Origin: a virus
Taxonomy: Duplodnaviria > Heunggongvirae > Uroviricota > Caudoviricetes
Strand: one strand, 5' to 3'
DNA: 64,000 nucleotides
IMG/VR virus record: IMGVR_UViG_3300032007_000008
Below the pieces are notes generated by a model. The model saw only the letters and a list, made by a program, of their open reading frames with translations. It was not told where the DNA came from and did no database searches. A program made the position numbers and the translations under genes. How positions within the stretch are numbered: the first letter of the stretch is position 1; the number at the start of each line of letters is the position of its first letter. Shown here piece by piece: positions 11,216 to 32,563 of this stretch.

Positions 11216-11251
11216 CGTCTGCGTCGAATATTTGATGACACTATTTAGGGT

Positions 11252-15784: not shown

Positions 15785-15813
15785 CCTTGACAAAACTCCT
15801 TTCGGAGCTTTTC

Positions 15814-17280
15814 TTACTTGAACATCGTGAACTTCTTCGTCTCGTTGATGCCGGGAACGTCACCGTTGAGGCCCTCAAGCGCGAGGAAGTAGTAGTAGTT
15901 CTCCGAACCCCAAACGTTGTCAAGTACGCCATAACGGGTACGAGCACCGAGGATTGGGCTGAAGGTACGTGGGTCAACAGCCTTGAGCATCTGCACAGGG
16001 ATGTAAGGGCAGAAGATGATACCAGTATCACCCTTCTGAGAACCCTTGTATCCAAGGAGCAGGTAGTCACCCTCTGCGAACGTGTCGCGAATGAGGAGCT
16101 GGTTGCCGTTGTTAATCATTCCAACCTTGAGGAGCGAACCAACGCCAGTGTTTGGCACACTAGGAATCTTTCCATTCTCGTTGGCCTGGAAAGGCGTGGT
16201 CTGGAAACGCTGGATAAGCGAAGTAGCCTTTGTGGAGGCAATCGCAAAGTTGGCCGAACCCCTACGTGTGTTCTGCGCGATTATGTTGGAGTAGTAATTG
16301 ATGTCCGTAATCAGCGTACCGAGACGGGACAGCTGGTCGTATCCATCAGCCGAAGCAGGCGTCCATGTAGCAATCTTGTCGCCGTTGATTGCAGCAAGAA
16401 TCTGCGAAGAGAGAATCTGACGGTCGATTTCAGCTGCGAGTTCGTAGCCGATTCCGCTCATCATCTCTTCCGAGATGTCGATTCCCTGCATTGCATTCGC
16501 ATCTTCCTGCACGTCAAGCGACCAGTGAGCCGCGAGCTTGCGGGTCTTTGCAACAACTTCCTTGTGGAGGAGGTTGAACTTGACCTGAGGATAGATAGGA
16601 GCATCAGTTCCGACACCTGCCCACTCGCCGTCCATCGTGTCAACGCCGGTTCCGTAGAGGTTAGCGTTCGTTCCGGCATACGCCTTCCACGCATTGGCCT
16701 TGGCATCGGCGCCAGAAGGAGCAACACCGGCCTTACCCGTGAAGTTCGCATACATGTTATTGTATCCGAGTTCGTATGGGTCGCCAGAGATACCCTTTCC
16801 GCTTACAGACGATGGGTTGAAGCTTCCATCAATCTGACCCTTCTTTCCGTACATCGCACGATAAGCAAACGCAAATCCGACAGGACCCGTCATAGGCTGT
16901 ACGGACACCGTGTCGTGAGCCATCAGCTCAGGGAAGATACGGCGAACCATTGGAATAATGAGCGTAGGAAGAACGTTGTTCTGTACGCCATTGGCAACAG
17001 CTCCAGCGCCAGTGTATCCGGAGTTCGTTCCGAGTACGCCTGAACCTGCTGCTGGGGTGTTAAGACCCTGAATACCTGCCACTCCGACGTTCATCGCGTC
17101 AGTGCGGTCGAAAGCCTCGTTTACCGAAGCAAGCGTTGGCTTGCCCAGTGCGTTGCGTTCCGTGTTCTCAAGCACAACCGCAGTATCAAGGCGCATGTCC
17201 TCGTCTTCGATGTGCTTCGTCGCTTCGAGGACCGGAGTCCACTTCGTAAGCAACTGTTCTGCTAGTTCTGGTTTTATCAT
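15814..17280 (-). CDS. g23: Major capsid protein (T4 gp23-like)
   Basis: KWTPVLE, AVVLENTE, IPMVRRIFPELMA, VQPMTGPVGFAFA, AKTRKLAAHWSLDVQED, AAEIDRQI, FCPYIP and RTRYG motifs. Confidence 0.97.
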   Translation of the reverse strand: MIKPELAEQLLTKWTPVLEATKHIEDEDMRLDTAVVLENTERNALGKPTLASVNEAFDRTDAMNVGVAGIQGLNTPAAGSGVLGTNSGYTGAGAVANGVQNNVLPTLIIPMVRRIFPELMAHDTVSVQPMTGPVGFAFAYRAMYGKKGQIDGSFNPSSVSGKGISGDPYELGYNNMYANFTGKAGVAPSGADAKANAWKAYAGTNANLYGTGVDTMDGEWAGVGTDAPIYPQVKFNLLHKEVVAKTRKLAAHWSLDVQEDANAMQGIDISEEMMSGIGYELAAEIDRQILSSQILAAINGDKIATWTPASADGYDQLSRLGTLITDINYYSNIIAQNTRRGSANFAIASTKATSLIQRFQTTPFQANENGKIPSVPNTGVGSLLKVGMINNGNQLLIRDTFAEGDYLLLGYKGSQKGDTGIIFCPYIPVQMLKAVDPRTFSPILGARTRYGVLDNVWGSENYYYFLALEGLNGDVPGINETKKFTMFK

Positions 17281-17330
17281 AGTTGTGTTTTCCTATTTGT
17301 TAGAAATCATTTTTGGTGGTTTCTGATTTT

Positions 17331-17338
17331 CTATTTAG
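17331..17338 (-). promoter_or_regulatory. T4-late-like promoter CTAAATAG upstream of the capsid gene
   Basis: One of ~17 copies, all intergenic, oriented with the downstream gene, and resembling T4 TATAAATA. Confidence 0.8.
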
Positions 17339-17368
17339 TCAAATCAAGTTTTTATCATTTTTCTATAC

Positions 17369-18400
17369 TTAGAAACGCATGTATTTGCACCCTGCAACAT
17401 ACCCGTCCATAAGTGTAGGAGTCTTCTGTGCAGCACTCTGCGTACTTTCGTTTACAGCAGTCTTGTTCGATGCAGCCGTTTTTTCAGAAGCCTCTTTAGC
17501 AAGTGTCTTCACAACAGTCGATTCGGAAATAACGTCGTTTACAACAGGTGTCGTATGACCGCGCTTGCGAAGCATCTTCTGATACTCCTTGTCGAAACAT
17601 TCGTTAATCTGTGCGACAGATGCTCCCTTGAAGGATTCGAGCATTTCCTTCTGCTCGGAAACTGGAAGGGAAGATACTTTGCGAAGAAGATAATTTTCAG
17701 CACGGACAGACTCAAGCATCTGCTCGGCTGCAATTCTCTTCTTTGTCTGTGTCTGCAATCCGTCCTTGGCTTCGTCAAGTTCTTTCTGAACTGCCTCCTG
17801 AGCAGCCTGACGAGCCTCGCAAACGGTTTCATCATTTACGGCGAACGTGTGCTGCATGGACTCGAAAAGCTCCTCAAGCTTGTTCAAACGGTCGTAGTTC
17901 ACAATCATCTTTTGTGGGAAGGATTCGTTAATCTTCTTTTCCACGAACTCGGATACGGCCTTCTTTGTCGATTCCTTGAAATATTCCTTTGTCTCGGCAT
18001 GCGTCGCAAGTTCGACAAGCTTGGATGATATGTCGAATTCCTTGCAAAGTTCCTCAAGCTTTTCTATAAGCTGTTCCGAAACTTCGTTCTCATGTTCGTC
18101 ACGCTCCTTGAAAGCCTCCTCTTTTCCTGCCTGGAATGCCGTCTCCTCAACACTCTTTATCGTGCTTTCACACATTTCCTTCGCGGAATCCGCGCCGTGC
18201 TTGAAAGACTTAACCTTTTCCTTGCGAAGCTTTTCCTCAGCAGCCTTTGTGCATTCCTCAAGAGCTTCTGCCTTGTATTTGTTGAATGCATCTTCAAGTT
18301 TCTTGTGTACGTCTTCGGTCAAAACGTTCTTTTCATCCTCCGTAAGAGAACCGACGTTTACCGATTCAATAAGCTGCTTTACATCTTCTTTTGTGAACAT
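17369..18400 (-). CDS. g22: Prohead core/scaffold protein (gp22-like)
   Basis: Lies immediately upstream of gp23; acidic coiled coil with many xxE(S/T) sites; ends LMDGYVAGCKYMRF, like the gp22 MxxY tail. Confidence 0.85.
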   Translation of the reverse strand: MFTKEDVKQLIESVNVGSLTEDEKNVLTEDVHKKLEDAFNKYKAEALEECTKAAEEKLRKEKVKSFKHGADSAKEMCESTIKSVEETAFQAGKEEAFKERDEHENEVSEQLIEKLEELCKEFDISSKLVELATHAETKEYFKESTKKAVSEFVEKKINESFPQKMIVNYDRLNKLEELFESMQHTFAVNDETVCEARQAAQEAVQKELDEAKDGLQTQTKKRIAAEQMLESVRAENYLLRKVSSLPVSEQKEMLESFKGASVAQINECFDKEYQKMLRKRGHTTPVVNDVISESTVVKTLAKEASEKTAASNKTAVNESTQSAAQKTPTLMDGYVAGCKYMRF

Positions 18401-18426
18401 TGTGATACTATCAAATAAGGATGCTT

Positions 18427-18619: not shown

Positions 18620-20167
18620 TTAAAACTGCATCTTTGCTTTCCAAGTCTTAAAATCTGTACAGTTCTTTACCTTAATTCCATTCTTTTTGGATTCGGAAGT
18701 AGCCTGTACGGGTTTTGGCTGTGCAGCTTGCTGAGGCTGCTGGACAGGCTTCTGCTGTGGCTGTGCAGCTTGCTGAGGCTGCTGAGCCGTAGTCTGCTGA
18801 ACAGGCTTCTGCTGAGCTGTTTGCTGTGTGGTTGCAGTTGTTGCAGTCTGTTGTAGCTGTGCAGCTTGCTGAGGCTGCTGGACAGGCTTCTGCTGAGACT
18901 GCGCCGCAGTGTTTGCAGGAGCGGCAGTTGGTGCGGCAGTTGGTGCGTCTTCGAATATGTTCTCGTGTCCTGCATCCAAATCAGCTATGCAATCTTCAAC
19001 TTCCTGCCAACTATTGAAGGCGTATATCTCTCCATCTTTATTAAACACTATGGCATCGTTTCCTGCATCCTCGAATGAGAATCCATGACCCTCCATCTTT
19101 TCAATCATATTGTCGAACACCGATTCGTCGATGACAATACTGGATTCGTCGCAACTTTCCGCAGCTTCTTTTTCCCCCTCGGAATTTCCAAATTTGTCCT
19201 TGAAGTAGTCGTATGCCTTTTTACCTCCATATACGAGAAGGGGTGTAGCCGCTAAAGCGGCAGCTGCATATGGATGATTTTTCGCGAACGTCAATGCTGT
19301 CTGTCCAGCCTGCTTCATGTTTGTAAGCACTTTAGAGCCAGCCTTGGAGATATACTCTCCAGGAGCCTCTTTGAATTTGTCTATTTGAGCAGCTACATCC
19401 TTCTTAAAAGTATCGACTTTATTTTTCAAGTCGTTTCCTATTTTCTTCGCAACGACATAACCGCCGCCAGCTGCGGCAGCAGCAGTTCCAGTCGCTTTTG
19501 CTCCGCCCTTTACAACTTCTCCTCCAACTTTAGCCACGGCACGGCCAATTGGTTTTGCAACCTTCGTGGCCGCAGTTGCAACAGGCTTTATTACCTTTGA
19601 GCCAACCGTTGCGACAGGCTTAAGAATAGTACCGGCCTTCGGAAGAACTTTTCCAACTGTTCCTATAACAGGCCCACCAGGAATAGGAGTCATCAAAGCG
19701 ATAGCATCTCCGGTAAGCTGAGCGGCTGTTTTGGTATCGTCAGCCCAAACAGCAGGCGTATCCTTCGTTACTATGATAGGTCTATTTCTAAAAGAGCCGT
19801 GGTCATTCCAAGAAGAAACATCACGATATGGTTTCACTTCGAGTCCGCCATGCGTTGTGTATGAATCGAGACCGTCTTCGTTTACAGTCTGCGATTCGCT
19901 GCCGGTTTTCTTGAGTTCGCGAGCCTTTTCTACTGCACTTTCTATAGAATCCGTGATTTTAACAGAAGACTCCTTGTCCTTTTTAACGGCATCGACCAAC
20001 GCTATAAGTGCATTTGCAACCGCTATGACATCTCGGCCATGCTTGCCGACGAATCGTATGGTGGACATTGCACCACGCCCTATCTTTGCCAACGGAATTG
20101 CTTCGTTAACGCCTGTGGATTCGGCAACCTGCATGTATGCCTGCTCAAGCTGTAGCTGTGTGTTCAT
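18620..20167 (-). CDS. Putative internal head/ejection protein A (515 aa, low complexity, DFKTWKAK terminus)
   Basis: Own late promoter (20193-20200); QAYMQVAES N-terminal motif; VNEA, VNED and IDES sites; Gly/Ala hydrophobic segments; Q/P repeats. Confidence 0.6.
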   Translation of the reverse strand: MNTQLQLEQAYMQVAESTGVNEAIPLAKIGRGAMSTIRFVGKHGRDVIAVANALIALVDAVKKDKESSVKITDSIESAVEKARELKKTGSESQTVNEDGLDSYTTHGGLEVKPYRDVSSWNDHGSFRNRPIIVTKDTPAVWADDTKTAAQLTGDAIALMTPIPGGPVIGTVGKVLPKAGTILKPVATVGSKVIKPVATAATKVAKPIGRAVAKVGGEVVKGGAKATGTAAAAAGGGYVVAKKIGNDLKNKVDTFKKDVAAQIDKFKEAPGEYISKAGSKVLTNMKQAGQTALTFAKNHPYAAAALAATPLLVYGGKKAYDYFKDKFGNSEGEKEAAESCDESSIVIDESVFDNMIEKMEGHGFSFEDAGNDAIVFNKDGEIYAFNSWQEVEDCIADLDAGHENIFEDAPTAAPTAAPANTAAQSQQKPVQQPQQAAQLQQTATTATTQQTAQQKPVQQTTAQQPQQAAQPQQKPVQQPQQAAQPKPVQATSESKKNGIKVKNCTDFKTWKAKMQF

Positions 20168-20224
20168 ATGTGATGTTTAATATTGAATGTCACTATTTAG
20201 TAAAAATGACACATTATAAGACAA

Positions 20225-20248
20225 ATGGGCATCCATTCGGATGCCCAT
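20225..20248 (-). terminator. Hairpin, probable terminator
   Basis: ATGGGCATCC-ATTC-GGATGCCCAT 10-bp stem with a weak U tract. Confidence 0.6.
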
Positions 20249-20272
20249 CATCGTGTATCGTATATTCAGTCC

Positions 20273-22159
20273 TTAAAACTTCCTCTTAGCCTTCCAAGTC
20301 TTGAAATCGGAAAAGTCCTTGACAATAGGCTTTTTAATTCCTTTGGATTCGTCTGTCGCCGCCTTTGACGAAGATGCAGAACCTGTCGATGGCTTTACTA
20401 CGGAGGAAATCTTTTCGCCTCCCTTGGACACTGCGCTTTTAACACTATTTACTGCACTGTTCAACTTTGGCGCAACCTTCTCACCGGCCTTAGCCACGGT
20501 ATTTCCAACCTTTGTCGCAGCAGCGGAAAGCTTTGGAGAAACCTTTCCCGCGACAGCGTTCATCTTATTTGCCAAATTTGGTGAAATACCGCCTGCGGCA
20601 GCTCCGACGGCACCGCCTATTGCCGCGCCCTTTGCACCACCCTTGAGAACGTCTCCGACCAACGAGGAATCCTTGTCGGCTTTGCCTGTGATATGGTCTA
20701 CGACAGCCTTGCCAGCTCCTACAACCGCACCGCCTGCCGCTCCTATCGCTCCACCGACTCCTGCGCTCTGCAAATTCTCGTTTGCGTTCTGAACACTCTC
20801 GGAAAAGTCATCGTTCGAAATGGAATCTTCGCCGTCGGAGTCCATGGACTGGAACATGTTTTCAACAGCCTCATCGTTCACTACTTCCGAAGTGTTGTCG
20901 GAAACTCCCTCGTTCGTCTTCTTGTCACTCGTGCGCATCATCTTTCCGAGTGCCACACCTCCTATAAGACCTATTCCGGCTCCAGCTCCCTTCATGAGAG
21001 TGTTTGCATTTTTTGCAACTGAGCTGAAATCGGAACCGGCTTTCGATACTGTCGCATCAAAATTGTCCATCGAAGTGTGCGCTCTGGAAGTTACACCCGA
21101 AATATCGCTTCCGGCCTTTGATACTGTTGCGTCTATGTTATCAAGCGAAGTGTTTGCGCGATTGCCAAGCTGTGAAACGGTGCCAGAAATTTCTCCTCCG
21201 ACTCTGCTCACATTAGCGTCGAGATTATCCATTGATGCAGCCGCCCTGTTCTTGACGGTATCTATGGCATCCGACGCCTTTCCGCCAACGCTGCTTACGT
21301 TCGCATCAAGATTGTCCATCGAAGCCGCTGTTCTAGCCTTGACGGTATCTATGGCATCCGACGCCTTTCCGCCAACGCTGCTTACGTTCGCATCAACATT
21401 TCCAAGCGTCTGTCCAACACGACCGCTTATATCGTCAACAGCTCCGCCTAGCTTGTCGGATGTAGCCTTTACGGAAGAAGCCGCACCGCTAATGTTTTCC
21501 AAGCCATCTGAAACTGAAGAAGCCTTCTGCTTGATGCCTGAAAGTTTTCCTTTTACCTTGTCAAAAAAACCTGGCGACTTATCGTCTTCAGTTACCTGTC
21601 CGTCTTCAGGTTTTTTTTTTCCAATCATGTCGCCGACCTTATCTCCGATAAAGCCGCCTGCCGCCCCTCCAAGCATACCTCCGACCATGCTTCCGATTCC
21701 TGGGGCTACGGCATTTCCGACGAGCATGCCTCCGACAGAACCGGCTAGGCTTCCGACGGTATTTCCTGTAGCACCTTCGTCAACCTCCTTGTTTTCTCCA
21801 TCGGAATTATCGTCATCGTCGTTCGTGGAAGCATTATCGTCTCCGTCGGAAGATGGAAGACCGCCATCTCCTTCATTGTCTCCGCCACCAAGACCGTCGT
21901 CTCCGCCTAGACCGTCTCCTGAGTCAAGACCGCCTTCGCCATCGTCGGCATTTCCTTCTCCATCATCGTCAGAATTTCCATCGTCGTTGGTGTCTGAATT
22001 CTCATCGTCATCGCTCTGTCCCTCATCCTCGTCTTCATCATCCTTAAGGATTGGGTCGTCAGGCTCGATGTCAAGTTTCTCCATCAAAGAGTGGTTTCTG
22101 TCACGGAGTTCCTCGATAATTTTATCGAGTCCCGCCAACACGTCAGTTTCTTTCATCAT
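20273..22159 (-). CDS. Putative internal head/ejection protein B (628 aa, glycine zippers, 29-aa repeats, DFKTWKAK terminus)
   Basis: Own late promoter (22193-22200); acidic D/G N-terminus; GxxxG zippers; VDEG, VTED, TNEG and ANEN sites. Confidence 0.6.
   Translation of the reverse strand: MMKETDVLAGLDKIIEELRDRNHSLMEKLDIEPDDPILKDDEDEDEGQSDDDENSDTNDDGNSDDDGEGNADDGEGGLDSGDGLGGDDGLGGGDNEGDGGLPSSDGDDNASTNDDDDNSDGENKEVDEGATGNTVGSLAGSVGGMLVGNAVAPGIGSMVGGMLGGAAGGFIGDKVGDMIGKKKPEDGQVTEDDKSPGFFDKVKGKLSGIKQKASSVSDGLENISGAASSVKATSDKLGGAVDDISGRVGQTLGNVDANVSSVGGKASDAIDTVKARTAASMDNLDANVSSVGGKASDAIDTVKNRAAASMDNLDANVSRVGGEISGTVSQLGNRANTSLDNIDATVSKAGSDISGVTSRAHTSMDNFDATVSKAGSDFSSVAKNANTLMKGAGAGIGLIGGVALGKMMRTSDKKTNEGVSDNTSEVVNDEAVENMFQSMDSDGEDSISNDDFSESVQNANENLQSAGVGGAIGAAGGAVVGAGKAVVDHITGKADKDSSLVGDVLKGGAKGAAIGGAVGAAAGGISPNLANKMNAVAGKVSPKLSAAATKVGNTVAKAGEKVAPKLNSAVNSVKSAVSKGGEKISSVVKPSTGSASSSKAATDESKGIKKPIVKDFSDFKTWKAKRKF
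21050..21410 (-). repeat. 87-bp (29-aa) in-frame tandem repeats, degenerating distally
   Basis: A ~58-nt block starting ttgacggtatctatggcatccgacgcc recurs at 21252 and 21339; protein unit LDANVSSVGGKASDAIDTVKxRxAASMDN. Confidence 0.9.
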
Positions 22160-22216
22160 AGGTTGAATGCCTTAATAAGTATTTTGATGACACTATTTAG
22201 GCGAGAGACTTAAAAC

Positions 22217-23236
22217 TTACAGTTTACCATACAATGAAATCAACAGTCCAATCATCTGTAGGCTTGGGTCTGTAACCTGACTCATGCGATATGCAGAATC
22301 CGCAATCATCGGAATGGTGGTATGGCTGTATCCGTTTCGCATTACGGATTCCATGAGTGAACTTGCAAAAATCTCATAATCCCCAGAAAATATTTGTGTA
22401 TTGCCAGTTACAGTCATTCGCACAGTTCTGTAGTCCTTTCCATCCTTGACCATCTTGAGAATCTTATCGGCGAAAGTGTCAAGTTCACTTGAGGCAGTAT
22501 TTACCTTTGCGTCATCTTTTATTCGCAAAGTACCGTCAAAGCACATCAACTGTGCCGTATTGATTATTAGACGTATATCAGGCATGCTTGGAGCGACAAA
22601 TTTCTTCGTGAATTCAAGCGCGGTTTCACGGTCGTACTTTATCCCCTCGGCATCCCATATAGTCTTCAATCGGCATGCTACGTCCTTGAGCGTAAAACCT
22701 ATATGGAGTTTTGGGCAGCGTGAAAAGATAGGCTCGATAATCTTCTTCGGATAATTGCAGGTTATTATGAATCTCGTATCTGTGAAAGACTCCATCAGAG
22801 AACGCAACGCCTTCTGCATTCCATTTGCAGCCGCGTTTCCGCCTGACGCTGCATCGAACTCGTCCAGAATTATGCACTTAATCCTGCCAGACGAAGCCGA
22901 TTCACAGAAAGGCTGAATCCTATTCCTAACGACATCGACGGTTCCGTCAACGCCGCAGTTTAGAAAAAGGGTCTCAGCATCGACAGACCTAGCCAACAAT
23001 CTTGCCAATGTCGATTTTCCTATGCCTGCCGTTCCAAACAGCGTCATGCTAGAAATATCCTTGGATTCAATCATGGATTTCAGCAGGTCCTTCGTATCTG
23101 CGTTAAGAACCATGTCATCCAACGTTCGAGGGCGATATTTTTCAACCCACGAAACGCTTACGTTCTTTACCGTCTTGTCATCGTTCTCGTTTGTCGAGAA
23201 TATGTCTATCTTTTCTTCTGTGTTTTCTGTTTCCAT
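22217..23236 (-). CDS. g44: Clamp loader AAA+ subunit (T4 gp44/RFC-like)
   Basis: WVEKYRP, GTAGIGKST (Walker A), IILDEFD (Walker B), FIITCNY and SRC motif. Confidence 0.95.
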   Translation of the reverse strand: METENTEEKIDIFSTNENDDKTVKNVSVSWVEKYRPRTLDDMVLNADTKDLLKSMIESKDISSMTLFGTAGIGKSTLARLLARSVDAETLFLNCGVDGTVDVVRNRIQPFCESASSGRIKCIILDEFDAASGGNAAANGMQKALRSLMESFTDTRFIITCNYPKKIIEPIFSRCPKLHIGFTLKDVACRLKTIWDAEGIKYDRETALEFTKKFVAPSMPDIRLIINTAQLMCFDGTLRIKDDAKVNTASSELDTFADKILKMVKDGKDYRTVRMTVTGNTQIFSGDYEIFASSLMESVMRNGYSHTTIPMIADSAYRMSQVTDPSLQMIGLLISLYGKL

Positions 23237-23248
23237 GTCAATTCCGTC

Positions 23249-24799
23249 CTAAAAAATGTCAAATGAAGCGTCCTCTACGGATTTCGTAGGGTCGAACTTC
23301 GAATAGTTCATGATATTTACATAATTTTCGAGGGACTTTGTGAAAATCTTCTCAAACATCTTGTTGTAGTCCTGATGGAACATAGTCCTGAACTCGTCTG
23401 GAAATACACCCTTAAACCCGACAACATCAAGCCCATATGGATTGGTTGGAAGAACATAGGAATATCGCATTTCGTCTCCAATTCCTATATTGGGATATTT
23501 TCCTCCTATGTTAAGCTCTTCAAGCAGTCCATTGTATATGTTTGCAGCTCTCGCATGTACGCCCGCGCCCTTTTCCGACTTCGTAAGGCTTATTGCGGCT
23601 TTCGGCGTTCTAAGCTTCTTGTAGAACGACATATCGCCCCAATCCAACTTTATAAACTTCCTATACGCCTCGTTAACAGCCGATATGTAGTCGCTTTCGC
23701 TCCACCGTCTCGTCATTGTCGTTTCATAGATGTCCTTTAAAAACGTCTTCATCGAAGCTGGTATTTCAGCCTTCTTTACGGAAATGCCAGAATATTTGAA
23801 TTTATCGCACGGAAGGTCGTCCGAAATAATCTTGTGAACTATGTAATGCTTCTTCTTGAAATAGAACCCCTCCGCAGCAATATACTCCAACGCATACCTC
23901 AGCACACTCCCCTGCGTAGTGTAGCAGTTGGTGTTTATTAGCTGCTCGACGTTCGCGTTCACAAGCTTCATTATATTGTATGCGTCGTCTACGACGGCCT
24001 TCTTGACGTTTTCTGGAAGTTCGGAAAACCGCGTATCCTCTGAAATTCCGGCTTCGCGGCATTTGCTCTTGGTTATTGGAGAGAGGTTTATAAACTGAGA
24101 GTTGTGGACTAACACTCCATTCGCGTAGTATACATGCATCCCAGACTTGACTTCAAGGTCATACACCCAGCATCCTTGCTCGTTTGGGTCTTCTTCTACG
24201 GATTCTACCGTTGCGGCTCCTGTACTAGCATACAGTGAAAACATCGGGTCTCCACCGGCATAAGCATAAGATTCCTGCTCTCCGTCGAACACCCTTTTGC
24301 ATTCGGCCATTGTGAAATCCTTGGCCTTGTCTATGAATTCCTCAAGAACCGGAAGCTTGTCTCCTACCTTAAGCTCCTTGGCAGACTTGAACCCTATTAG
24401 GTTTTCTATTGAATACTTGTCTGGTTCATCAATGCATTCATGGGAATCTAGCTTCTCAAGCATCTCGTCGAACAAATCGTTGTAGTATGAACATGTATGG
24501 TCGTTCGTTGTCTTGAGAATGAATTTCTTTCCATCGGAAACGCGAGACGCACGGATTGTATATATCGGCTTTGTAACAAAATGCCTCGATATGCAAACCA
24601 CATCGGAATACGTGTCGGACCTTTTTCTATCAAACATGGAAAACACGCCAGAACCGTAGTCTCCTACGCGAACCTTCACCGTTCCGCTATTCGGTCTTAT
24701 CAGAAAATTGGAATTATCTCCGTTTTTAACCTCTTCCACATCCATTTTTGATGAAAGGATGTCCCAGAGTCTGCCTATGTTTAGATTTACGTCTTTCAT
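23249..24799 (-). CDS. g43: Split-intein C fragment fused to the C-terminal half of family B DNA polymerase
   Basis: Residues 1-233 carry intein blocks B (TTNDH), F (VYDLEV) and G (VHN). The extein starts SQFIN, the continuation of YGDTD|S, then KKKHY, KYSGISVKK and FEKIF polB motifs. Confidence 0.88.
   Translation of the reverse strand: MKDVNLNIGRLWDILSSKMDVEEVKNGDNSNFLIRPNSGTVKVRVGDYGSGVFSMFDRKRSDTYSDVVCISRHFVTKPIYTIRASRVSDGKKFILKTTNDHTCSYYNDLFDEMLEKLDSHECIDEPDKYSIENLIGFKSAKELKVGDKLPVLEEFIDKAKDFTMAECKRVFDGEQESYAYAGGDPMFSLYASTGAATVESVEEDPNEQGCWVYDLEVKSGMHVYYANGVLVHNSQFINLSPITKSKCREAGISEDTRFSELPENVKKAVVDDAYNIMKLVNANVEQLINTNCYTTQGSVLRYALEYIAAEGFYFKKKHYIVHKIISDDLPCDKFKYSGISVKKAEIPASMKTFLKDIYETTMTRRWSESDYISAVNEAYRKFIKLDWGDMSFYKKLRTPKAAISLTKSEKGAGVHARAANIYNGLLEELNIGGKYPNIGIGDEMRYSYVLPTNPYGLDVVGFKGVFPDEFRTMFHQDYNKMFEKIFTKSLENYVNIMNYSKFDPTKSVEDASFDIF
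24101..24799 (-). mobile_element. Intein C fragment, no block A, no homing endonuclease
   Basis: Ends HN at 24101-24106, immediately followed by Ser+1. Confidence 0.85.
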
Positions 24800-24802
24800 C
24801 TC

Positions 24803-25390
24803 TCAACCGTTAAATTTCACCGCAGGAAGCCTATAGTCGTAATCGAAATACTTCGTCTTCCCAAGAACATACATTGCATTATCTTCCGAGGAGTGGAGAG
24901 AAACCTTGTCGCCTATTCCATATCCCCGATATTCGCAACCTTCTCCTATCGACCTGACTATTCCATACGGGTCTATATCCGTAATCTGAATAAAGCCGTA
25001 TTCGTTTATAGTCTCTTTTGGCTCAACAGCCTCAAGTATTATTCTTCCCTTAAGGGCATGAACTTCATTTCCGTTTACATCTGTCCTAAAAAGCACGTTC
25101 TTGCAATTTATGAAAGAGATTGGAAACGTATCGGCAAAACGGGCAAGCATGTCAACATACACGTAGTCTCCAACATTTATCGATGTCTTCTCATTCACCT
25201 TCGCGCCTTGCTTGACAACCCTGTACCAGAACATGCGAGTATTCCTGTTGAGGGAGTCCACCATAACTATTTCACCGTTTCTCTGCTCTACATTTGGAAC
25301 CTCTGCACGAATACACATCATGTCGTCTCCCATTTGCCGTGGAATGACATCATATTCTCCGTCTGATTGTCCTATCTGCTGAATGTTCAT
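24803..25390 (-). CDS. Tandem two-domain GroES-like co-chaperonin
   Basis: Two units: ..GEIVM..RVVKQG..INVGDYVYV and LKGRIILE..GFIQI..GIVRSIGEG..IGDKV. Confidence 0.7.
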   Translation of the reverse strand: MNIQQIGQSDGEYDVIPRQMGDDMMCIRAEVPNVEQRNGEIVMVDSLNRNTRMFWYRVVKQGAKVNEKTSINVGDYVYVDMLARFADTFPISFINCKNVLFRTDVNGNEVHALKGRIILEAVEPKETINEYGFIQITDIDPYGIVRSIGEGCEYRGYGIGDKVSLHSSEDNAMYVLGKTKYFDYDYRLPAVKFNG

Positions 25391-25416
25391 ACTATTGCTC
25401 CATAAGCAATGGATAG

Positions 25417-25445
25417 ATTATAGCACAGAAGCGGTTTTTCCGCAA
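25417..25445 (-). promoter_or_regulatory. sigma70-type promoter TTGCGG-17-TATAAT (extended -10) inside an inverted repeat
   Basis: -10 at 25417-25422, -35 at 25440-25445; 13-bp arms AGAAGCGGTTTTT/AAAAACCGCTTCT at 25427-25439 and 25450-25462. Confidence 0.7.
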
Positions 25446-25489
25446 CAGAAAAAACCGCTTCTATCATTTTTATCCTATTATGGAGTCCT

Positions 25490-26320
25490 CTATCCGACAA
25501 GCTCTCTCGCATCGCATGGGTATTTCGACACGAAAATCTCGCCTGCGCAATTTCGGCTGTTCGCCTCCATTACGTTTGATGGCGGAGGTGCAATAAACAC
25601 GGACTCGCAAACTGAATTTTCCTTGAAGGTGAACCGTTTCATCGTCCCTTTGTCGAATGGACTGTCTTCGGCATTCACTTTGTTCAAAGAGGTGAAATAT
25701 TCCTGAGCTATGTCGTTCAGTTTCGCATCCTTCCCAAACCACCTCTGTTCAGTGCCAACAGGGTCTCCATTCGGGTACTGTGTCGTCACATAATAGTATG
25801 GGGCTTCGCCTGGGGGACAAATAAGAACCGATTCCTGACGATACTTCTGTCCAAGTGCTATCGCAGCCTTTTTTACGCGCTCAAATGGATTTTCGTCACT
25901 GTTTCCAGACTGCGCTGGAATAAGAAACGACCTTTCGAACACATCTTCGCCAGGAGTTACCTCAGGATGTTCGTTGTCGCGACCTTCCTTGTATCCTCCA
26001 AAAACCTGTACATATCCAAGTCCCATGCTTTTGAGGTCTGACTGCAACTCCTTGGTCTTCACGTTGTTCCAATATTTCGGATTGACGTATGTTGACTGCA
26101 AATTCTTCGATAGAGCCTTAAACTCGTCGCTATCGGTTCCACCAAGCTTTCCAACCTCATATGCAGCCCAGTCTCCCCTGCATGCGGAAACTATGCAGTA
26201 GCCAACATCCTGCTTTCCGAGGACATGAGCAAGTGACGCTTCGCTAAGCTCTGTCGCACATGTTGATTCAACGACCTGCTTATACGCTTCAGCTATTTTC
26301 TTGTTAAACAATATATCCAT
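25490..26320 (-). CDS. SAM-lyase-like protein (T3 SAMase/Svi3-3 family) with an N-terminal extension
   Basis: CIVSACRG..NNVKTKELQSDLKSMGLGYVQVFGGYKE..ERSFLIP..LGQKYRQESVLI parallels the VSAFR..GxYxE..ExS..QDxVL pattern I recall for this family. Start set at MDILF; GTG 26341 is the alternative. Confidence 0.65.
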   Translation of the reverse strand: MDILFNKKIAEAYKQVVESTCATELSEASLAHVLGKQDVGYCIVSACRGDWAAYEVGKLGGTDSDEFKALSKNLQSTYVNPKYWNNVKTKELQSDLKSMGLGYVQVFGGYKEGRDNEHPEVTPGEDVFERSFLIPAQSGNSDENPFERVKKAAIALGQKYRQESVLICPPGEAPYYYVTTQYPNGDPVGTEQRWFGKDAKLNDIAQEYFTSLNKVNAEDSPFDKGTMKRFTFKENSVCESVFIAPPPSNVMEANSRNCAGEIFVSKYPCDARELVG

Positions 26321-26346
26321 AAGCCTATTTTTCCGTAACACCGTTA

Positions 26347-26375
26347 AGTATACTACATTACTCAGTTTTTGTCAA
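26347..26375 (-). promoter_or_regulatory. sigma70 promoter TTGACA-17-TATACT
   Basis: Near-consensus boxes with exact spacing. Confidence 0.8.
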
Positions 26376-26377
26376 TA

Positions 26378-27073
26378 TTAAATCTTCTTCAAAAGAGTAT
26401 CCCACGCACCAAGTATTATTTCCTTCTTTTTTGCGGAATCGAAGGTTTTTGTTGAAGAATTGATTGCTCTCTCGTATTCCTCAAGAGTACATTCCACTAT
26501 CTGACCATGTGTATCAATCATGAAATCCTTCGATTCAAGCACACCTTCGCAGAACAGTCCTATGCTTGGGTCGCATACTAGGTCAATCGTGCTGAGCGAA
26601 TAGTTCCTTACATAATCTCCAACTATTTCCCCTACACCTCTTGTTGACATGCCCATCGGAGTGTCGTAATCTATATAAGCCTTTGCGAGGTCTGCGGCTG
26701 GAGTTCCCTTTTGGTTGTGAGCTGGGTCGCTATACATCAAAGTTGCCACTCCGTTCCAAACCTTGTTTTCGGGGTCAAGTTCTAGGTCGAGTATTTTTAT
26801 CGCAGCCCTTGAACGGTCAACCTTGTTGTCCGTTGGATGTTCAAAGTCTCCAAAAGCGCGAGATGGTCTTACAGAATCTTCGATAAACTTGTCAACCTGC
26901 GGTTTCAGTTCATTGAAATCGTACATCCTATGGTTTCTGTTCAACTTGTCGGCAACTATGAATGTTCCACGAAAATTGTATGGATGAAAACCGTCCTCAC
27001 GAGCTTTCGAATTATCGAAAGTCACTGCCCTTTCAAGAGCGTCTCTCGTATCTTCAACAATAAGCTTAAGCAT
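26378..27073 (-). CDS. g21: Prohead core protein protease (gp21-like)
   Basis: LNRNHRMY, GDFEHP, GMSTRGVG and IDLVCDPS motifs; late promoter variant at 27096-27103. Confidence 0.93.
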   Translation of the reverse strand: MLKLIVEDTRDALERAVTFDNSKAREDGFHPYNFRGTFIVADKLNRNHRMYDFNELKPQVDKFIEDSVRPSRAFGDFEHPTDNKVDRSRAAIKILDLELDPENKVWNGVATLMYSDPAHNQKGTPAADLAKAYIDYDTPMGMSTRGVGEIVGDYVRNYSLSTIDLVCDPSIGLFCEGVLESKDFMIDTHGQIVECTLEEYERAINSSTKTFDSAKKKEIILGAWDTLLKKI

Positions 27074-27132
27074 GGTTTGAAAATGTTTTATGTCATTATT
27101 TAGGGTTTATTAACAGAAATGACATAATGCAA

Positions 27133-29748
27133 TCATTTTTCAAACATGGTGTCGAGACTCTTTTCCAGCGATTGATGCTTCTGATAATGGCCTGCATGTT
27201 TTATGCCAAACTCTCTTTTGAACACCCGCGAAAGAGTCTTTCCGCCTGTGGCATGGCCACCCTTGAACTCTTTTCTAAACACCGAACTTAAGCTCTTTCC
27301 ACCCTTCGAAGAGCCGCTTCCATCACCGAACACATCGTTGAATACGTCTGCCAGTGTCGTGGTTTTGGATGAAGCCTCTCCTCCATCTTTTCCAAATTCA
27401 GAATTGAATACGTCGGTAAGTGTTCCCCTTGATTTATCGCGCTCCGACTGAGTTCCAAAAGAATCCTTGAACGCATCATGAAGCGAACCGTTGCGTTTTG
27501 AATGTTTCGTGTTTCGTCCAAAGGAATCTTTAAATACGTCGGAGAGAGTCTCCTTTCCGTCGAAACCGCTCAATCCTCGTATTCCACGTTCCGTTTCAGG
27601 ATACTTCTTCGCCCCACGGTCAGATTTCTCTCTGTTACGTTCTCCGAAATCGCCAAATTCTGGATTTTCCGGCATTTCGCGCTCAGCCGAGGTCTTTCCG
27701 GAATCATCTCTAAGGTCAAGCTCGTCAGCAGTTGTCTGTGTTATGTTTCCGCTGTTTGCGAATTCATCAAATCCTGCATCAGCAGCAGCGTTCATCTGTT
27801 CAGAACCAAGGTCAAGGGAGTCGCCTGCCGCAGGAGCGGCTGTCATATCAGTGGCTGGAACTTCAGCCGTTCCACCACCCATTTCCGGTGCAGGCGCGGC
27901 ACCTGCGTCAGCTGGAGCAGGCGCTGCGCCAGCCCCCATGTCAGCCGGTGGTGTTCCTCCACCCATGTCGGCAGGCGGTGTTGCGCCTCCGGCGGCCATA
28001 CCATCTGGATTGTCAAGATACTTCTCGTTGTCAAGGTAAATGTTGGCATTTGCCTTTGCAGCTCCAATCTGCTGTGCCATCCATTCAGTCTGTGCCTTGA
28101 ACAATGCCTCTCTTCGTACCTCTACCTCATTTTCTTTTATTTCGCTATCAGTGAAATTGAACACTTTTTTCAGAAGAAGATTCTTGCTGAGAAACTCCAC
28201 GGAAGCAGCAGAATTCACGATATCGAGAGCGTCACGGAATCTTGTCTGCGCCTGATAGTTTTCAAAAAGTGCAGGTGGAATCATCTCCACATCTATCTCA
28301 CTTTCGTGAAGGTCGTATTTCGTAAACAGACCCTTCATCCTGAGGTGAGTTATAAATGTCTTCTTGACCGCAGCCGCAAACATCGTCTGATATCTCACGA
28401 TACTCTGCGCGAACGAATATTCTTCGTTCTGTATCGACTGCTTGTCCTGTCGGTTCGCCGCATTCTCAGACCACCTCTGCCAAGGAATTCCGAGAAACTT
28501 CAGCATTCTCTTTAGAAAATATTCTACGTCATGAAGCTCGTTGTAGTGGCTAGTTGAAGCAAGGCTCGTTACTGACGTTCCTGCACCTTCGCCTATCTTC
28601 CAAAAATAATATGCATCGAGCATGGTTTCGGCGTTATAGACATTTGTCACCGCTCCGCTTCCCTGAACGGCCTTTCTCGACTTATGAGCCATCGCCATTT
28701 CACGAACCTTCTGCTCGGCCTTCTTAGCTGGCATTCCAGCAAGGTCAACGTTGAACACAAGCTTCTCAGGTGCTCTTGTAATCCTATATATCACGATTGC
28801 ATCGTGCATGAGGAGAAGCTGACGTGTTGGAACTGCAACTTTCTCGATTACCGGAAACACGACAGAACCGTCTTCCGAAAGAACGCCAGAATTCATGTAA
28901 GTAACCTGTTCGAACGGCATGACGATTTTGTTCTTCATGTCTAGCGAATATGTATACGAATATGCAGGAATCTGCCTTATGGCGTTGAACACCGTAGACG
29001 ACTGACCGGCATATGACGTTCCGCCGTATGCTGAAAATTGTGTATACGTCTTGAGTCTTTCGGGGTCGAGATACAGCCCCTCAATCTGTCCGGTTCGTCT
29101 GTTTCTCAAAAAATCATAGAACATGGTAGGCATATACTTAAACCCTATTATACCATATTCTGGATGATTGTGGTCTATGACATTCTCAAAACACAGTTCG
29201 CCTTCTATTAGGAATTTCCTAATCATGTTGAATCCTGTGGTCTTAAGGTCGTAATGAGATACTAGATTCTTAAATTCTTCTTGAAGTACTGAATCCTCTC
29301 CAGACGAGAACTTCGAATCCGCGCACTTAAACTTGAGCCTAAGATAATCTCCATTTATGTCTGCGTGAAGAAAATCATTTGCAATTTCGTTTATGCACCA
29401 ATCAAGCTCAGGATATCTTGCAAGATTGTCGTATGCCTGAATTCTTGCTATCTTGTTTGTATCTACAGGAAGGGCAAGTCCGAGTTCCGTATTTCCGAAT
29501 GACGAATCCGTGTTAGTATTGTTTGCAAGAACACCGGCCGCACCAAACGGATTTCCTCCCCTGTTAAACGAATTGTTTCCAATTACGAGGGAATTCGCCG
29601 TTACCGAAAATTTGTCTATGCTTTTTCGAATTGAGCTTTTAACAGAATCCATGAACTCGCCACCGGCTGGATTGTGCGGTATGTCGGTAACTCCATCCGT
29701 GGAAACAGGCTTTGTTCTCCTGAAGAATCTGTCGATAATGGATGCCAT
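27133..29748 (-). CDS. g20: Portal protein (gp20-like) with a long C-terminal extension
   Basis: YPELDWCINEIAND, IYRITRAPEKLVFNVD, VEYFLKRMLKFLGIP and EEYSFAQSIVRYQ motifs; 871 aa. Confidence 0.93.
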   Translation of the reverse strand: MASIIDRFFRRTKPVSTDGVTDIPHNPAGGEFMDSVKSSIRKSIDKFSVTANSLVIGNNSFNRGGNPFGAAGVLANNTNTDSSFGNTELGLALPVDTNKIARIQAYDNLARYPELDWCINEIANDFLHADINGDYLRLKFKCADSKFSSGEDSVLQEEFKNLVSHYDLKTTGFNMIRKFLIEGELCFENVIDHNHPEYGIIGFKYMPTMFYDFLRNRRTGQIEGLYLDPERLKTYTQFSAYGGTSYAGQSSTVFNAIRQIPAYSYTYSLDMKNKIVMPFEQVTYMNSGVLSEDGSVVFPVIEKVAVPTRQLLLMHDAIVIYRITRAPEKLVFNVDLAGMPAKKAEQKVREMAMAHKSRKAVQGSGAVTNVYNAETMLDAYYFWKIGEGAGTSVTSLASTSHYNELHDVEYFLKRMLKFLGIPWQRWSENAANRQDKQSIQNEEYSFAQSIVRYQTMFAAAVKKTFITHLRMKGLFTKYDLHESEIDVEMIPPALFENYQAQTRFRDALDIVNSAASVEFLSKNLLLKKVFNFTDSEIKENEVEVRREALFKAQTEWMAQQIGAAKANANIYLDNEKYLDNPDGMAAGGATPPADMGGGTPPADMGAGAAPAPADAGAAPAPEMGGGTAEVPATDMTAAPAAGDSLDLGSEQMNAAADAGFDEFANSGNITQTTADELDLRDDSGKTSAEREMPENPEFGDFGERNREKSDRGAKKYPETERGIRGLSGFDGKETLSDVFKDSFGRNTKHSKRNGSLHDAFKDSFGTQSERDKSRGTLTDVFNSEFGKDGGEASSKTTTLADVFNDVFGDGSGSSKGGKSLSSVFRKEFKGGHATGGKTLSRVFKREFGIKHAGHYQKHQSLEKSLDTMFEK

Positions 29749-29788
29749 CTGCGAAAAAGTTCTCTTATGTTAAATTATACAACGTGGA

Positions 29789-30760
29789 TTAGAACGATAT
29801 GCTATTGTTAAGCACAGCATTGTTAAGGGACTCTTCTCCGAACTTCTGCCAGTTCATAATCATCCTCAACGCATCCTGGTTGTTTAACTTCTTTGCAAGA
29901 GAAACGACTGTCTCGCCATCCTTCGTCTTGTATTCTAGGTCCGAAACTGGAAGAATTTCGGCAAATATGTTTGGTGTCCATATTGAACCCCCACCTCGCC
30001 TCATAAGACATACCATGAGAGCGGAATACTGACCGTCCCTATATCCACGGTCTACACCTCCGGCTTTCACTATCTCACGAGCAAATTCATATGGGTCTAT
30101 TCCTGGTATTTCCGCGACGGCCTGTAATGGTCTTGCTCCAAATCCGTCTTTGTCGTTCACAAGCTCTCGTATTTCTGGAACTGCGAGCACCAGCTTTAGG
30201 CATTGAAGATTCTTTCCACGGATTGCCGCAGTTATTGGATTCAATCCGCTATATCTCTTCATCGCCTTATATCCGGCCTTGAGAATCGCCCTTACGTTCA
30301 TGTCGTTACCCATGAGACACTGCCATGTAAGAGCATCGACAAGACCAAGGTCTATCGAAGGAATATCCTCATACAACCCAGAATCATTAAGCCACATTGG
30401 AATATGACTGCTTTGTACGGGACGATTTGTCGATACGCCCTGATTCAACGCAGCTTCTACCGATGTTATATCCTGTGCGAACACGCCGCTTTTAGAATTG
30501 CATGTGGATGATGTTTTACAAAACGGAGAAACTAGAACCTTTTCCGAAAATTTGGAGTTTGGATGCTTTTCGGTGTCAGTTCTGACAAATCTATTGGTTG
30601 CATCGCCACCCTGTCCAATAACCGTCTTCTCGCTCTTATCGCCATCGATGTTAAACTGTCTGTCCTTAATCGCCTTTTTGTGAAGAGATTCGGCTTTTCT
30701 AGTATTTTCACATACTAAACGGTATGCTGCATAAATGCTTACTGGCTTTTCCATGTGCAT
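29789..30760 (-). CDS. Ankyrin-repeat protein
   Basis: GLNPITAAIRGKNLQCLKLVL, DGFGARPLQAVA, DGQYSALMVCL and DGETVVSLAKKLNNQDALRMI repeats. Start moved to ATG 30760 because the late promoter occupies 30778-30785. Confidence 0.75.
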   Translation of the reverse strand: MHMEKPVSIYAAYRLVCENTRKAESLHKKAIKDRQFNIDGDKSEKTVIGQGGDATNRFVRTDTEKHPNSKFSEKVLVSPFCKTSSTCNSKSGVFAQDITSVEAALNQGVSTNRPVQSSHIPMWLNDSGLYEDIPSIDLGLVDALTWQCLMGNDMNVRAILKAGYKAMKRYSGLNPITAAIRGKNLQCLKLVLAVPEIRELVNDKDGFGARPLQAVAEIPGIDPYEFAREIVKAGGVDRGYRDGQYSALMVCLMRRGGGSIWTPNIFAEILPVSDLEYKTKDGETVVSLAKKLNNQDALRMIMNWQKFGEESLNNAVLNNSISF

Positions 30761-30777
30761 GATAAAATGATTTGACA

Positions 30778-30817
30778 CTATTTAGTCAATCATATTTTAG
30801 CAAAGAAGTCTAAATAA
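30778..30817. promoter_or_regulatory. Divergent pair of late promoters
   Basis: CTAAATAG on the minus strand (30778-30785) and CTAAATAA on the plus strand (30810-30817). Confidence 0.75.
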
Positions 30818-30841
30818 TGGCATACATATTGTTTAATCCTT

Positions 30842-32563
30842 ATGGAACAGTTCAAAAGAAACGATTTTAGAAACATCTGCGAAGCATATGAACAAATGAA
30901 TTCCGTAGATGAAGGAGTTTGGGATAGCACAAAGGAGCTTGCTCGAAAGGGTGTAAGAGGCGCGGAACGTCTAGCAGGCGATGCCATAGCCGGTACAGGT
31001 CGGGCTATTGGAAGGGGAATAGGAGGAAGCGTCCGACTTGCAGGACGTGGATTGGCCGATGCTGGCCGTTCCCTTGGACGTGGAATACGTTCTGGCGCTG
31101 AATCGCTTGGTCGTGGACTTGGAAGATTTGCAAGTGCAACTGGCGAAGAGGGGGTAAAAGCAGGAGTTGGAACTGCAAAGGTATTGGGAAAAGGACTTTG
31201 GGGAGCTACAAAGCTTGCTGGTAAAACTGCACTGGGAGTTGCGACTTTTAACGGAGACAGGATAAAACAGGCGTGGAGCGATGCCGGTGATGGTTTTGGA
31301 AAGACGGTATCTGACATAGAGAAATCAGCAGGTCGCGTTGCCGATAGGATAGGCGGAGGACTTGCCGACGGCGCAAAGGCGGTTGGCAATGGGCTTGTCA
31401 ATACAGTAACAGGAACTGGCGAATACATAGGCCGTCAGGCGGCTGATGGAGTAAAAACGGCTTGGAGGGGTGTAACTCAAACTGCATCTGGAATCGGAGA
31501 CACTGTGAGCAAGGCAGCGCACAACACGATGGACAACATCCATGCGGAAAACGAAAAGCTTCGTGCTGAGCGCGATGCCGCCGATGCGGAAAAATCCGCC
31601 AAGAAAGCTGCCGAGAAAGCTGAAAAAGAAGCAAAAAAGAAAAAATACGACAATCTACGAAAGAAATTTGGAGCCCGTGTGAAAGTAAAGAAGAACATGG
31701 ACAAGATTGATGCACGTATAGCAAAAAGAAAGGAAGACGCAAAGAAACAGGCCGAAGCCGAAGCCGCAAAAAGAGAAAAGATTTCGAAAAAGGCAGACGC
31801 AGCTCTCGCAAAACACGACGCAGATGAGAAGAAGGCCGAACAGAAACGTGCTGAAAAGGCCGCTGCTGCTGAAAAAAAGGACAGAGAAGACGCAGAAGCC
31901 GCAAAAAAGAAGGCAGCGCAAAAAGCTGAAAAGGAAGTAAAATCCGCATGGAAAAAGCGCAATGATGGAACAGCGTCTGAAATTTCCGACGAAGAAAAGA
32001 AACGACAGGAAGAAGAAATGTGGGACCAGCATGAACGCGAAAACGCAAAGGCCAATGCTGCGGCTGGAGCCGAAATCGAGCATATCCATGCGGATGCCAT
32101 GAAAGCTGACGATGCGAAGAAGCGCAAACACGGAATAAGCCTGTTTCAAAGATGGAAAAAGCGCGGTGAAGAAAAGAAGGCAGCTCAGAAAAAGGCGGAA
32201 GAGGAACAGAGGGCTGCGCTTAATCGTGAACTCAAAGGTGAAGAAAAATACAACGATGCTCTTGCCATGTCAGAATCGACAGGTGTCAATAGCTTTTCGA
32301 TAAAGATATTCAACACAGACCTTGATGCAATATATTCGAATTCAATATCCTGTGATTGTGAAAATCTTCCATCAGCCGCCGAAAGGATACTTGGAGGAAT
32401 AAAACTCGGAATCCCCTCCGATGTCATATCCGACATAAAGGAAATGCTGAACGGAATCACCGCTGAAGATTGGGTTGAGATGAAGCAATCAAAAGACCGC
32501 GTAAGCTATGAGTTCGTGTCTGACGATTACGGCGAGCTTGAAATATCCATAGAGGCCGAATAA
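30842..32563 (+). CDS. Putative internal head/ejection protein C (Gly-rich amphipathic region, then K/A/E coiled coil)
   Basis: Only substantial plus-strand gene; own late promoter and terminator; ICEAYEQM..VDEG N-terminus. Confidence 0.75.
   Translation: MEQFKRNDFRNICEAYEQMNSVDEGVWDSTKELARKGVRGAERLAGDAIAGTGRAIGRGIGGSVRLAGRGLADAGRSLGRGIRSGAESLGRGLGRFASATGEEGVKAGVGTAKVLGKGLWGATKLAGKTALGVATFNGDRIKQAWSDAGDGFGKTVSDIEKSAGRVADRIGGGLADGAKAVGNGLVNTVTGTGEYIGRQAADGVKTAWRGVTQTASGIGDTVSKAAHNTMDNIHAENEKLRAERDAADAEKSAKKAAEKAEKEAKKKKYDNLRKKFGARVKVKKNMDKIDARIAKRKEDAKKQAEAEAAKREKISKKADAALAKHDADEKKAEQKRAEKAAAAEKKDREDAEAAKKKAAQKAEKEVKSAWKKRNDGTASEISDEEKKRQEEEMWDQHERENAKANAAAGAEIEHIHADAMKADDAKKRKHGISLFQRWKKRGEEKKAAQKKAEEEQRAALNRELKGEEKYNDALAMSESTGVNSFSIKIFNTDLDAIYSNSISCDCENLPSAAERILGGIKLGIPSDVISDIKEMLNGITAEDWVEMKQSKDRVSYEFVSDDYGELEISIEAE

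Follow-up and report, generated by a model that had tools for sequence, protein, structure and literature searches.

Bacteriophage T4 reportedly carries a capsid targeting sequence (CTS) on its internal proteins IPI, IPII, IPIII and Alt, as Mullaney and Black are said to have described in 1996. Here, we analyze a short N-terminal motif, A-Y-x-x-(V/M)-x-(E/S), on unrelated proteins of an uncultured tailed phage (Caudoviricetes; IMG/VR record IMGVR_UViG_3300032007_000008) that is present in bovine gut metagenomes from several studies. The whole stretch of DNA analyzed, called the window below, comprises 64,000 nucleotides and corresponds to bases 99,039-163,038 of a single 291,479-bp contig with a GC content of 45%. 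As judged by comparison of the proteins that carry it, the motif is a genuine, clade-specific and modular N-terminal signal. We give a probability of about 0.6 to the reading that it forms the core of a lineage-specific capsid targeting leader, which would work like the T4 CTS and be removed facultatively by an S77-type prohead protease.

The T4 CTS has been reviewed (PMC9026906, PMC3012670, PMC12373910). As read from the T4 genome (NC_000866), the leaders of IPII and IPIII consist of 10 residues with Tyr4, Phe7, Ile8 and Glu10, and IPI has a related 19-residue leader ending in Glu. Residues 4 and 7 of the T4 leader serve targeting and residues 8 and 10 serve processing, while Asp at position 10 stops processing but not targeting (PMC9026906). 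The internal proteins of the T-even phages share the leader only and are injected inhibitors of restriction enzymes (PMC12373910, PMC3012670). In phage P1, the packaging signal of DarB is N-terminal and 10-30 residues long (PMC9024508), and propeptides have been described on ejection and inner-body proteins of phiKZ, 201phi2-1 and SPN3US (PMC5694885, PMC7411985).

A sequence-only reading of the window had singled out four head-cluster proteins with the motif, had called them otherwise unrelated, and had set N-terminal enrichment over shuffled controls as a check. The four N-terminal strings were all recovered, in the open reading frames (ORFs) 18620-20167 (-), 25490-26341 (-), 29789-30778 (-) and 30842-32563 (+). 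Orthologues place the true starts of two of them further in, at 26320 and 30754, and the A-Y pair then stands at residues 10-16 in all four. Genome-wide counts were made with a crude set of 373 genes covering the whole 291,479-bp genome, in which the strict pattern A-Y-x-x-[VMIL]-x-[ES] matched 11 times, eight of these at protein residues 10-19 (binomial P = 2.6e-7). With residues 6-25 counted as N-terminal, shuffling of whole proteins or of their first 40 residues gave 0.5 N-terminal matches on average and never more than four, so that eight observed matches stand against 0.5 expected and the predicted enrichment is borne out.

Further members were found with a profile built from the eight proteins and with a relaxed core, aliphatic-x-x-A/S-Y-x-x-hydrophobic, bringing the total to about 17 leader proteins with the core I-x-x-A-Y-x-x-hydrophobic. 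Five are encoded in the window, at 18620, 25490, 29789, 30842 and, as a weaker copy, 39182. Members outside the window lie at 45.3, 46.2, 54.8, 193.0, 201.9, 269.3, 270.5, 272.1, 278.2, 279.6, 280.2 and 289.6 kb of the genome. After refinement of the start codons, the conserved Ile falls on residues 6-13 in 15 of the 17. A logo of 20 sequences reads E(-4), R/N(-3), R(-2), x, I(0), x, E/K, A(3), Y(4), x, x, M/V/I(7), Y/V/L(8), E(9), S/G(10), with Ile in 19 of the 20 and both Ala and Tyr in every one; the consensus of the leader is E-R-R-x-I-x-E-A-Y-x-x-(M/V/I)-(Y/V/L). Its hydrophobic positions 0, 3, 4, 7 and 8 share one face of an alpha-helix.

Across three families, the core I-x-x-A-Y was invariant in 36 of 36 orthologues at identities down to 38%. 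These comprise 12 orthologues of the protein encoded at 25490 plus seven further leader-bearing representatives, 14 of the ankyrin-repeat protein at 29789 and three of the 515-residue protein at 18620. For the 25490 protein, I, E, A and Y were invariant in the 12 orthologues (38-98% identity), and the core of the ankyrin-repeat protein was invariant in all 14 (47-98%); the first 70 residues of the 515-residue protein were nearly unchanged in its orthologues P0031 and P0032. Conservation of the leader in orthologues is as strict as that of catalytic residues. In P0015, P0035 and P0039, an extra domain stands between the leader and the enzyme, and the leader is still found at the extreme N-terminus.

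The protein encoded at 25490 resembles S-adenosylmethionine (SAM) lyases, and its domain family has 1,155 representatives at E <= 1e-3. Only about 10 of the best 150 representatives, those closest to the studied phage, carry the leader, where 0.012 would be expected by chance per protein. The other 140 or so lack it and begin directly at the first helix of the domain, and the leader is therefore a modular add-on. AlphaFold2 (AF2) models of two cargos likewise show the leader as an N-terminal helix of its own, with a low-confidence linker behind it. No leader was present at seven loci with distant SAM-lyase-like homologues. As a separate observation, many of the leaderless family members P0047-P0074, which come from other phages, begin just before the enzyme domain with a short basic-hydrophobic stretch such as M-K-(F/I/L)-K. 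Such stretches may be further packaging tags of this enzyme family, each specific to its lineage.

A motif this short could be a chance likeness, a remnant of gene duplication or a cassette carried at the DNA level. The excess over shuffled proteins and the conservation in distant orthologues speak against chance. Once the leader was removed, BLASTP found no similarity among the leader proteins, which confirms that the four proteins first singled out are otherwise unrelated and rules out paralogy or a duplication remnant. Every position of the motif shows differing synonymous codons, and therefore the signal acts at the protein level; this variation rules out a recombination or translation signal in the DNA. 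Chance, paralogy and DNA-level explanations are refuted by these observations, and we leave them virtually no probability.

Behind the core, a hydrophobic-x-Glu site no more than 23 residues after the Tyr was found in 13 of 16 members, against a background of 31% (P = 5e-5). The site ends exactly at Y+5 in eight of the 16, and the residue that follows is mostly Ser, Ala or Gly. Cleavage of many cargos is plausible on the strength of these sites. We also considered as a cleavage site the invariant L-x-E-A-S-L, cut after the Glu, that stands behind the leader of the SAM-lyase-like protein, and rejected it: leaderless homologues keep the same helix, which is therefore part of the enzyme domain and says little on cleavage.

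A protease-type site so often found behind the tag would also suit a degron, or an inhibitory propeptide removed by the protease, that keeps potentially harmful enzymes inactive or short-lived in the producer and has nothing to do with packaging; several cargos are enzymes that might harm the producing cell. However, an amphipathic helix that sits on unrelated folds and is split off by disordered linkers would make a poor general inhibitor, and the prohead is the known site of action of S77 proteases (PMC5694885). We consider a role in stability or inhibition very unlikely.

Compared with the T4 CTS, the element is again a short N-terminal leader that is the sole common part of unrelated proteins. 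In both, an aromatic residue is followed three positions later by a hydrophobic one and then often by hydrophobic-x-Glu. The studied phage also has the gp20 portal, gp21-type S77 protease and gp23 capsid protein of T4, and its cargos, like those of T4, look like anti-defense factors. Unlike the T4 leader, which begins M-K-T-Y/F-x-E-F at the very N-terminus, the core I-x-x-A-Y starts here at residue 6-13, and no sequence homology to the T4 leader (NC_000866) was detected, only the aromatic/hydrophobic spacing being alike.

The P1 Dar system resembles the present one in that an N-terminal signal of 10-30 residues suffices to load a large anti-restriction enzyme and in that several anti-restriction proteins are packaged in the head (PMC9024508). 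It differs in that only one protein is documented to have the signal, and in the need of loading for helper Dar proteins (PMC9024508). No motif common to many cargos has been described for P1 Dar, and P1 is not of the T4 type. The phiKZ-type jumbo phages likewise have a gp21-like protease and load many proteins into the head; the N-terminal propeptides of these proteins have a presumed role in targeting, and cleavage follows a Glu. Unlike the leader here, these propeptides are mostly 80-130 residues long, are common to paralogues only and have the cleavage motif (S/A/G)-x-Glu.

The principle, then, is that of the T4 CTS and of the P1 DarB signal, and the suggestion of the sequence-only reading that this may be an undescribed system is overstated. 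Its proposal of a distinct targeting signal is upheld in part, in so far as in silico evidence supports a distinct, modular N-terminal signal at the protein level that is common to unrelated late proteins, in a phage whose head machinery is of the T4 type.

The reading that we prefer, a capsid targeting leader, can be laid out as a sequence of events, each of which we infer from docking onward. During prohead assembly, the amphipathic helix of the leader would dock on the scaffolding core or on the repeat-bearing tail of the portal described below, and docking would enclose the attached protein in the head. The S77 protease would then remove the leader in many cargos by cutting hydrophobic-x-Glu before Ser, Ala or Gly, a few residues behind the core. 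The cargos would remain in the head until they enter the next cell together with the DNA, and they would act before phage gene expression, mainly against host defenses. The proteins delivered in this way would include many ORFans, besides a probable SAM lyase, an ArdC/zincin-like protein, a double GNAT acetyltransferase and an ankyrin-repeat protein.

Several findings weigh against a capsid targeting leader. Only 13 of the 36 orthologues retain the Y+5 site, and in 11 of the 36 no site lies within 23 residues. Each leader had been said to end at a gp21-type Glu site, and this is right for the present genome as an enrichment (13 of 16 members) but fails as a rule across orthologues. With the Glu site so poorly kept and the core kept in 36 of 36, the core is therefore the conserved element, and cleavage is not obligatory to the signal. 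The leader, at about 16-27 residues, is longer than the T4 CTS, has no sequence similarity to it and, unlike it, has no conserved Glu site. Most cargos are acidic (pI 4-6), and many of the approximately 17 are large acidic enzymes, whereas T4 has three or four cargos that are small and basic. Some leader genes lack the late box discussed below. The distant relatives L015 and L016 show no leader beside the portal, and the evidence therefore comes from one narrow clade; portal-based searches yielded few relatives. Lastly, the phage is uncultured; the phiKZ-type propeptides also differ in being backed by proteomics.

The head machinery that such a leader would use is of the T4 type, as judged from the sequences of the gp20 portal, the S77 protease with its catalytic His and Ser, and the gp23 capsid protein. 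The major capsid protein (15814-17280, -) matches Pfam Gp23 (6e-71) and is 27% identical to T4 gp23, and no capsid protein of deposited phages exceeded about 31% identity to it. A blastn search of the capsid gene against E. coli genomes gave no match and is uninformative. A candidate maturation site in this protein, V-N-E55 before Ala, has the same form as sites behind several leaders; that this is where it is cut is a guess from the sequence. An alternative candidate, a Glu at the T4 cleavage position, was rejected because the alignment with T4 gp23 puts none there.

The prohead protease (26378-27073, -; Pfam Peptidase_S77 and phrog_207), the presumed processing enzyme, is 29% identical to T4 gp21, and its His79 and Ser143 align with the catalytic His85 and Ser140 of gp21. 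Near its own N-terminus it has an I-V-E site, whose counterpart in T4 gp21 is L-I-E. The portal (27133-29748, -) matches Pfam Portal_T4 and has a C-terminal extension of about 300 residues. A coiled-coil protein (17369-18400, -) is scaffold-like by its position just upstream of the capsid gene and by its composition, and had no match in Pfam or PHROG searches. By analogy with T4, it is presumed to form the core to which the leaders would bind.

A nine-base box, CTAAATA(A/G)T, was found at 43 places in the genome, where 7.5 would be expected. It usually stands about 30 nt upstream of a start codon and precedes the protease gene, giant structural genes and other virion genes; it is therefore read as a variant of the T4 late box and is a probable late promoter. 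Ten of 16 leader genes have the box, compared with 29 of 357 others (Fisher P = 2.5e-7), and the 19.6-kb relative G001 uses the same box. In the window, it lies at 20192-20200, 27095-27103 and 30777-30785 (-) and at 30810-30818 (+), beside the genes of the 515-residue cargo, the protease, the ankyrin-repeat cargo and a 573-residue cargo, respectively. By promoter inference only, the leader genes would be expressed late, when heads are built. Some leader genes also have sigma-70-like promoters, as in the case of the SAM-lyase-like gene (TTGACA, 17 bases, TATACT; 26347-26375, -), and that gene may therefore be expressed both early and late.

RNA libraries gave pieces of three cargo genes at a depth of 2-6 (runs X3 and X8), which are compatible with late expression but no proof of it, as such contigs neither demonstrate transcription nor locate the ends of transcripts. 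A single metatranscriptome contig (run X3) spans exactly the capsid and scaffold genes (15800-18404) at a depth of 35, compared with 2-6 for other parts of the head cluster, and stops at the start of the scaffold gene, which suggests an abundant late transcript starting just upstream of that gene.

The tag could instead serve as a handle for some other late process, such as incorporation into the tail or baseplate, binding of a phage chaperone or localization in the cell. In favor of this, there is no physical tie between the tag and the head, leader genes lie away from the head module at 269-291 kb (seven genes) and at 45-55 kb (three genes), and some orthologues have no protease site nearby. 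On the other hand, six of the approximately 17 members are encoded among or next to the genes of the portal, protease, scaffold and capsid. In G001, whose portal is 54% identical, all four leader genes are found around the portal and protease genes; they code for proteins of 722, 642 and 368 residues and a weaker case of 235 residues, and these are not orthologous to the cargos here. Both the geometry of the leader and the enrichment of Glu sites fit the rules of a head protease. The types of cargo (SAM lyase-like, ArdC-like, GNAT and ankyrin) are enzymes and effectors rather than tail parts. We consider another late process unlikely.

A further reading is that the tag is a recognition or modification site for a phage-encoded maturase, for example a radical-SAM enzyme. 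A generic radical-SAM protein of 387 residues is encoded at 265,058-266,218 (+) of the genome, about 3 kb from the group of leader genes at 269-291 kb. Yet no SPASM domain was found in the genome, and the other radical-SAM match is NrdG, adjoining NrdD. The 387-residue enzyme itself is encoded beside a Dam methylase and best resembles the methyltransferase or methylthiotransferase classes. Moreover, leader genes are spread across 250 kb, and those of the 19.6-kb relative stand beside head genes. A maturase site is in our view highly improbable. Independently of this question, the 387-residue gene (locus L027, 994-2157) directly follows that of the Dam-family DNA methyltransferase, and its product may be part of a module that modifies DNA or protein.

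The extension of the portal (27133-28010; residues ~580-871) consists of a linker rich in Pro, Ala, Gly and Met and, behind it, six L-x-D-V-F-x-x-x-F-G repeats at intervals of about 21 residues. Such repeats are found in the relatives that have leader genes (L001 and L017), and the distant portals L015 and L016 have neither repeats nor leader genes nearby. The leader may therefore, going by this co-occurrence, be linked to the unusual repeat-bearing portal tail, and it is speculative from the sequences that the repeats are its docking site. With six repeats per subunit, a dodecameric portal would present about 72. In a more specific version, the amphipathic core would be a docking helix that plugs into these repeats with no need for cleavage, and the approximately 17 enzymes would sit on a rack near the portal and leave ahead of the DNA. 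We regard this version as quite unlikely; if true, a portal rack would be a loading mechanism unlike the scaffold-core route of T4.

The cargos of the window differ in size and composition. The leader of the 515-residue cargo (gene 18620-20167, -) comprises residues 1-16 (20120-20167, -), its core being followed by V-x-E before Ser and then by a second site, V-N-E before Ala. In strains from further cattle samples (runs X4 and X5), the middle of this cargo is swapped for an unlike sequence of similar length (19317-19731), and its Gln/Pro-rich repeat has insertions and deletions (18786-18921), while the leader and the C-terminal tail are unchanged. The payload of this cargo varies between constant ends. 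The leader of the 573-residue cargo (gene 30842-32563, +) has about 24 residues (30842-30913, +), with a Glu site at Y+8. Both proteins are rich in Gly, Ala and Lys and of low complexity. They had been taken for membrane-active proteins, which we could not support: their highest 19-residue hydropathy values, 1.25 for the 515-residue and 0.72 for the 573-residue protein, are below the transmembrane range.

For the SAM-lyase-like cargo (gene 25490-26320, -), the leader comprises 18 residues from the true start at 26320 (26267-26320, -), and residues 1-27 form a detached, low-confidence helix in the AF2 model. Its match to Pfam S-AdoMet_lyase (PF23780) scores 27.4 bits, with a cut-off of 28, and several of its orthologues carry PF23780 according to precomputed matches. 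The top Foldseek matches of the model are the phage SAM lyases 6ZM9, 7OCK and 8BB1 (E 3e-3; TM 0.37-0.47, target-normalized). The probable identity of this cargo is that of a SAM lyase. The ankyrin-repeat cargo (gene 29789-30754, -) has a leader of 16 residues from the true start at 30754 (30707-30754, -). It matches Ank_2 with 20.6 bits (cut-off 27.3), and two orthologues carry PF12796; its AF2 model has an N-terminal helix, about 50 disordered residues and then stacked helix pairs over residues 140-315. The anti-restriction enzyme and the ankyrin effector of the sequence-only reading correspond in silico to a probable SAM lyase and a probable ankyrin-repeat protein.

Elsewhere in the genome, the cargo at 278.2 kb has two GNAT domains, and the cargo at 280.2 kb has a zincin/ArdC-like "anti-restriction" region with weak matches only; the remaining cargos are ORFans. 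Two marginal cases complete the window. A 147-residue protein (39182-39625, -) has the weaker leader copy, with Ile at residue 7, no nearby Glu site and no late box, and is a possible member. Membership is doubtful for a late protein of 624 residues (9341-11215, -; late box at 11248; no family match), in which the N-terminal variant S-A-F replaces E-A-Y.

If the leader does target proteins to the capsid, this phage would deliver about 17 pre-made proteins with its DNA, far more than T4, and the probable SAM lyase among them would deprive type I restriction and BREX of their cofactor before the first phage gene is read. The tag would then be a simple sequence rule for listing the injected effectors of an uncultured lineage of rumen phages, and as most tagged proteins are of no known function, the list would be a source of new anti-defense proteins. 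It would also provide a second, sequence-independent example of what a capsid signal needs, namely a hydrophobic stripe around one aromatic residue, and such a signal might be used to bring foreign proteins into phage heads.

Two further observations concern the neighborhood of the capsid gene. Three successive genes upstream of it, 17369-18400, 18620-20167 and 20273-22159 (all -), code for the scaffold-like protein, the 515-residue leader cargo and a 628-residue Gly-zipper protein without a leader. The three proteins end in a similar basic-aromatic tail with Phe as the last residue, which is found in none of the other genes of the 373-gene set and which may be a second capsid- or scaffold-binding signal. 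Within the head cluster, between the clamp loader and the protease, lies a C-terminal piece of DNA polymerase with an intein-like segment at its head (23249-24799, -), and the same layout is seen in a relative (L001, 11954-12700).

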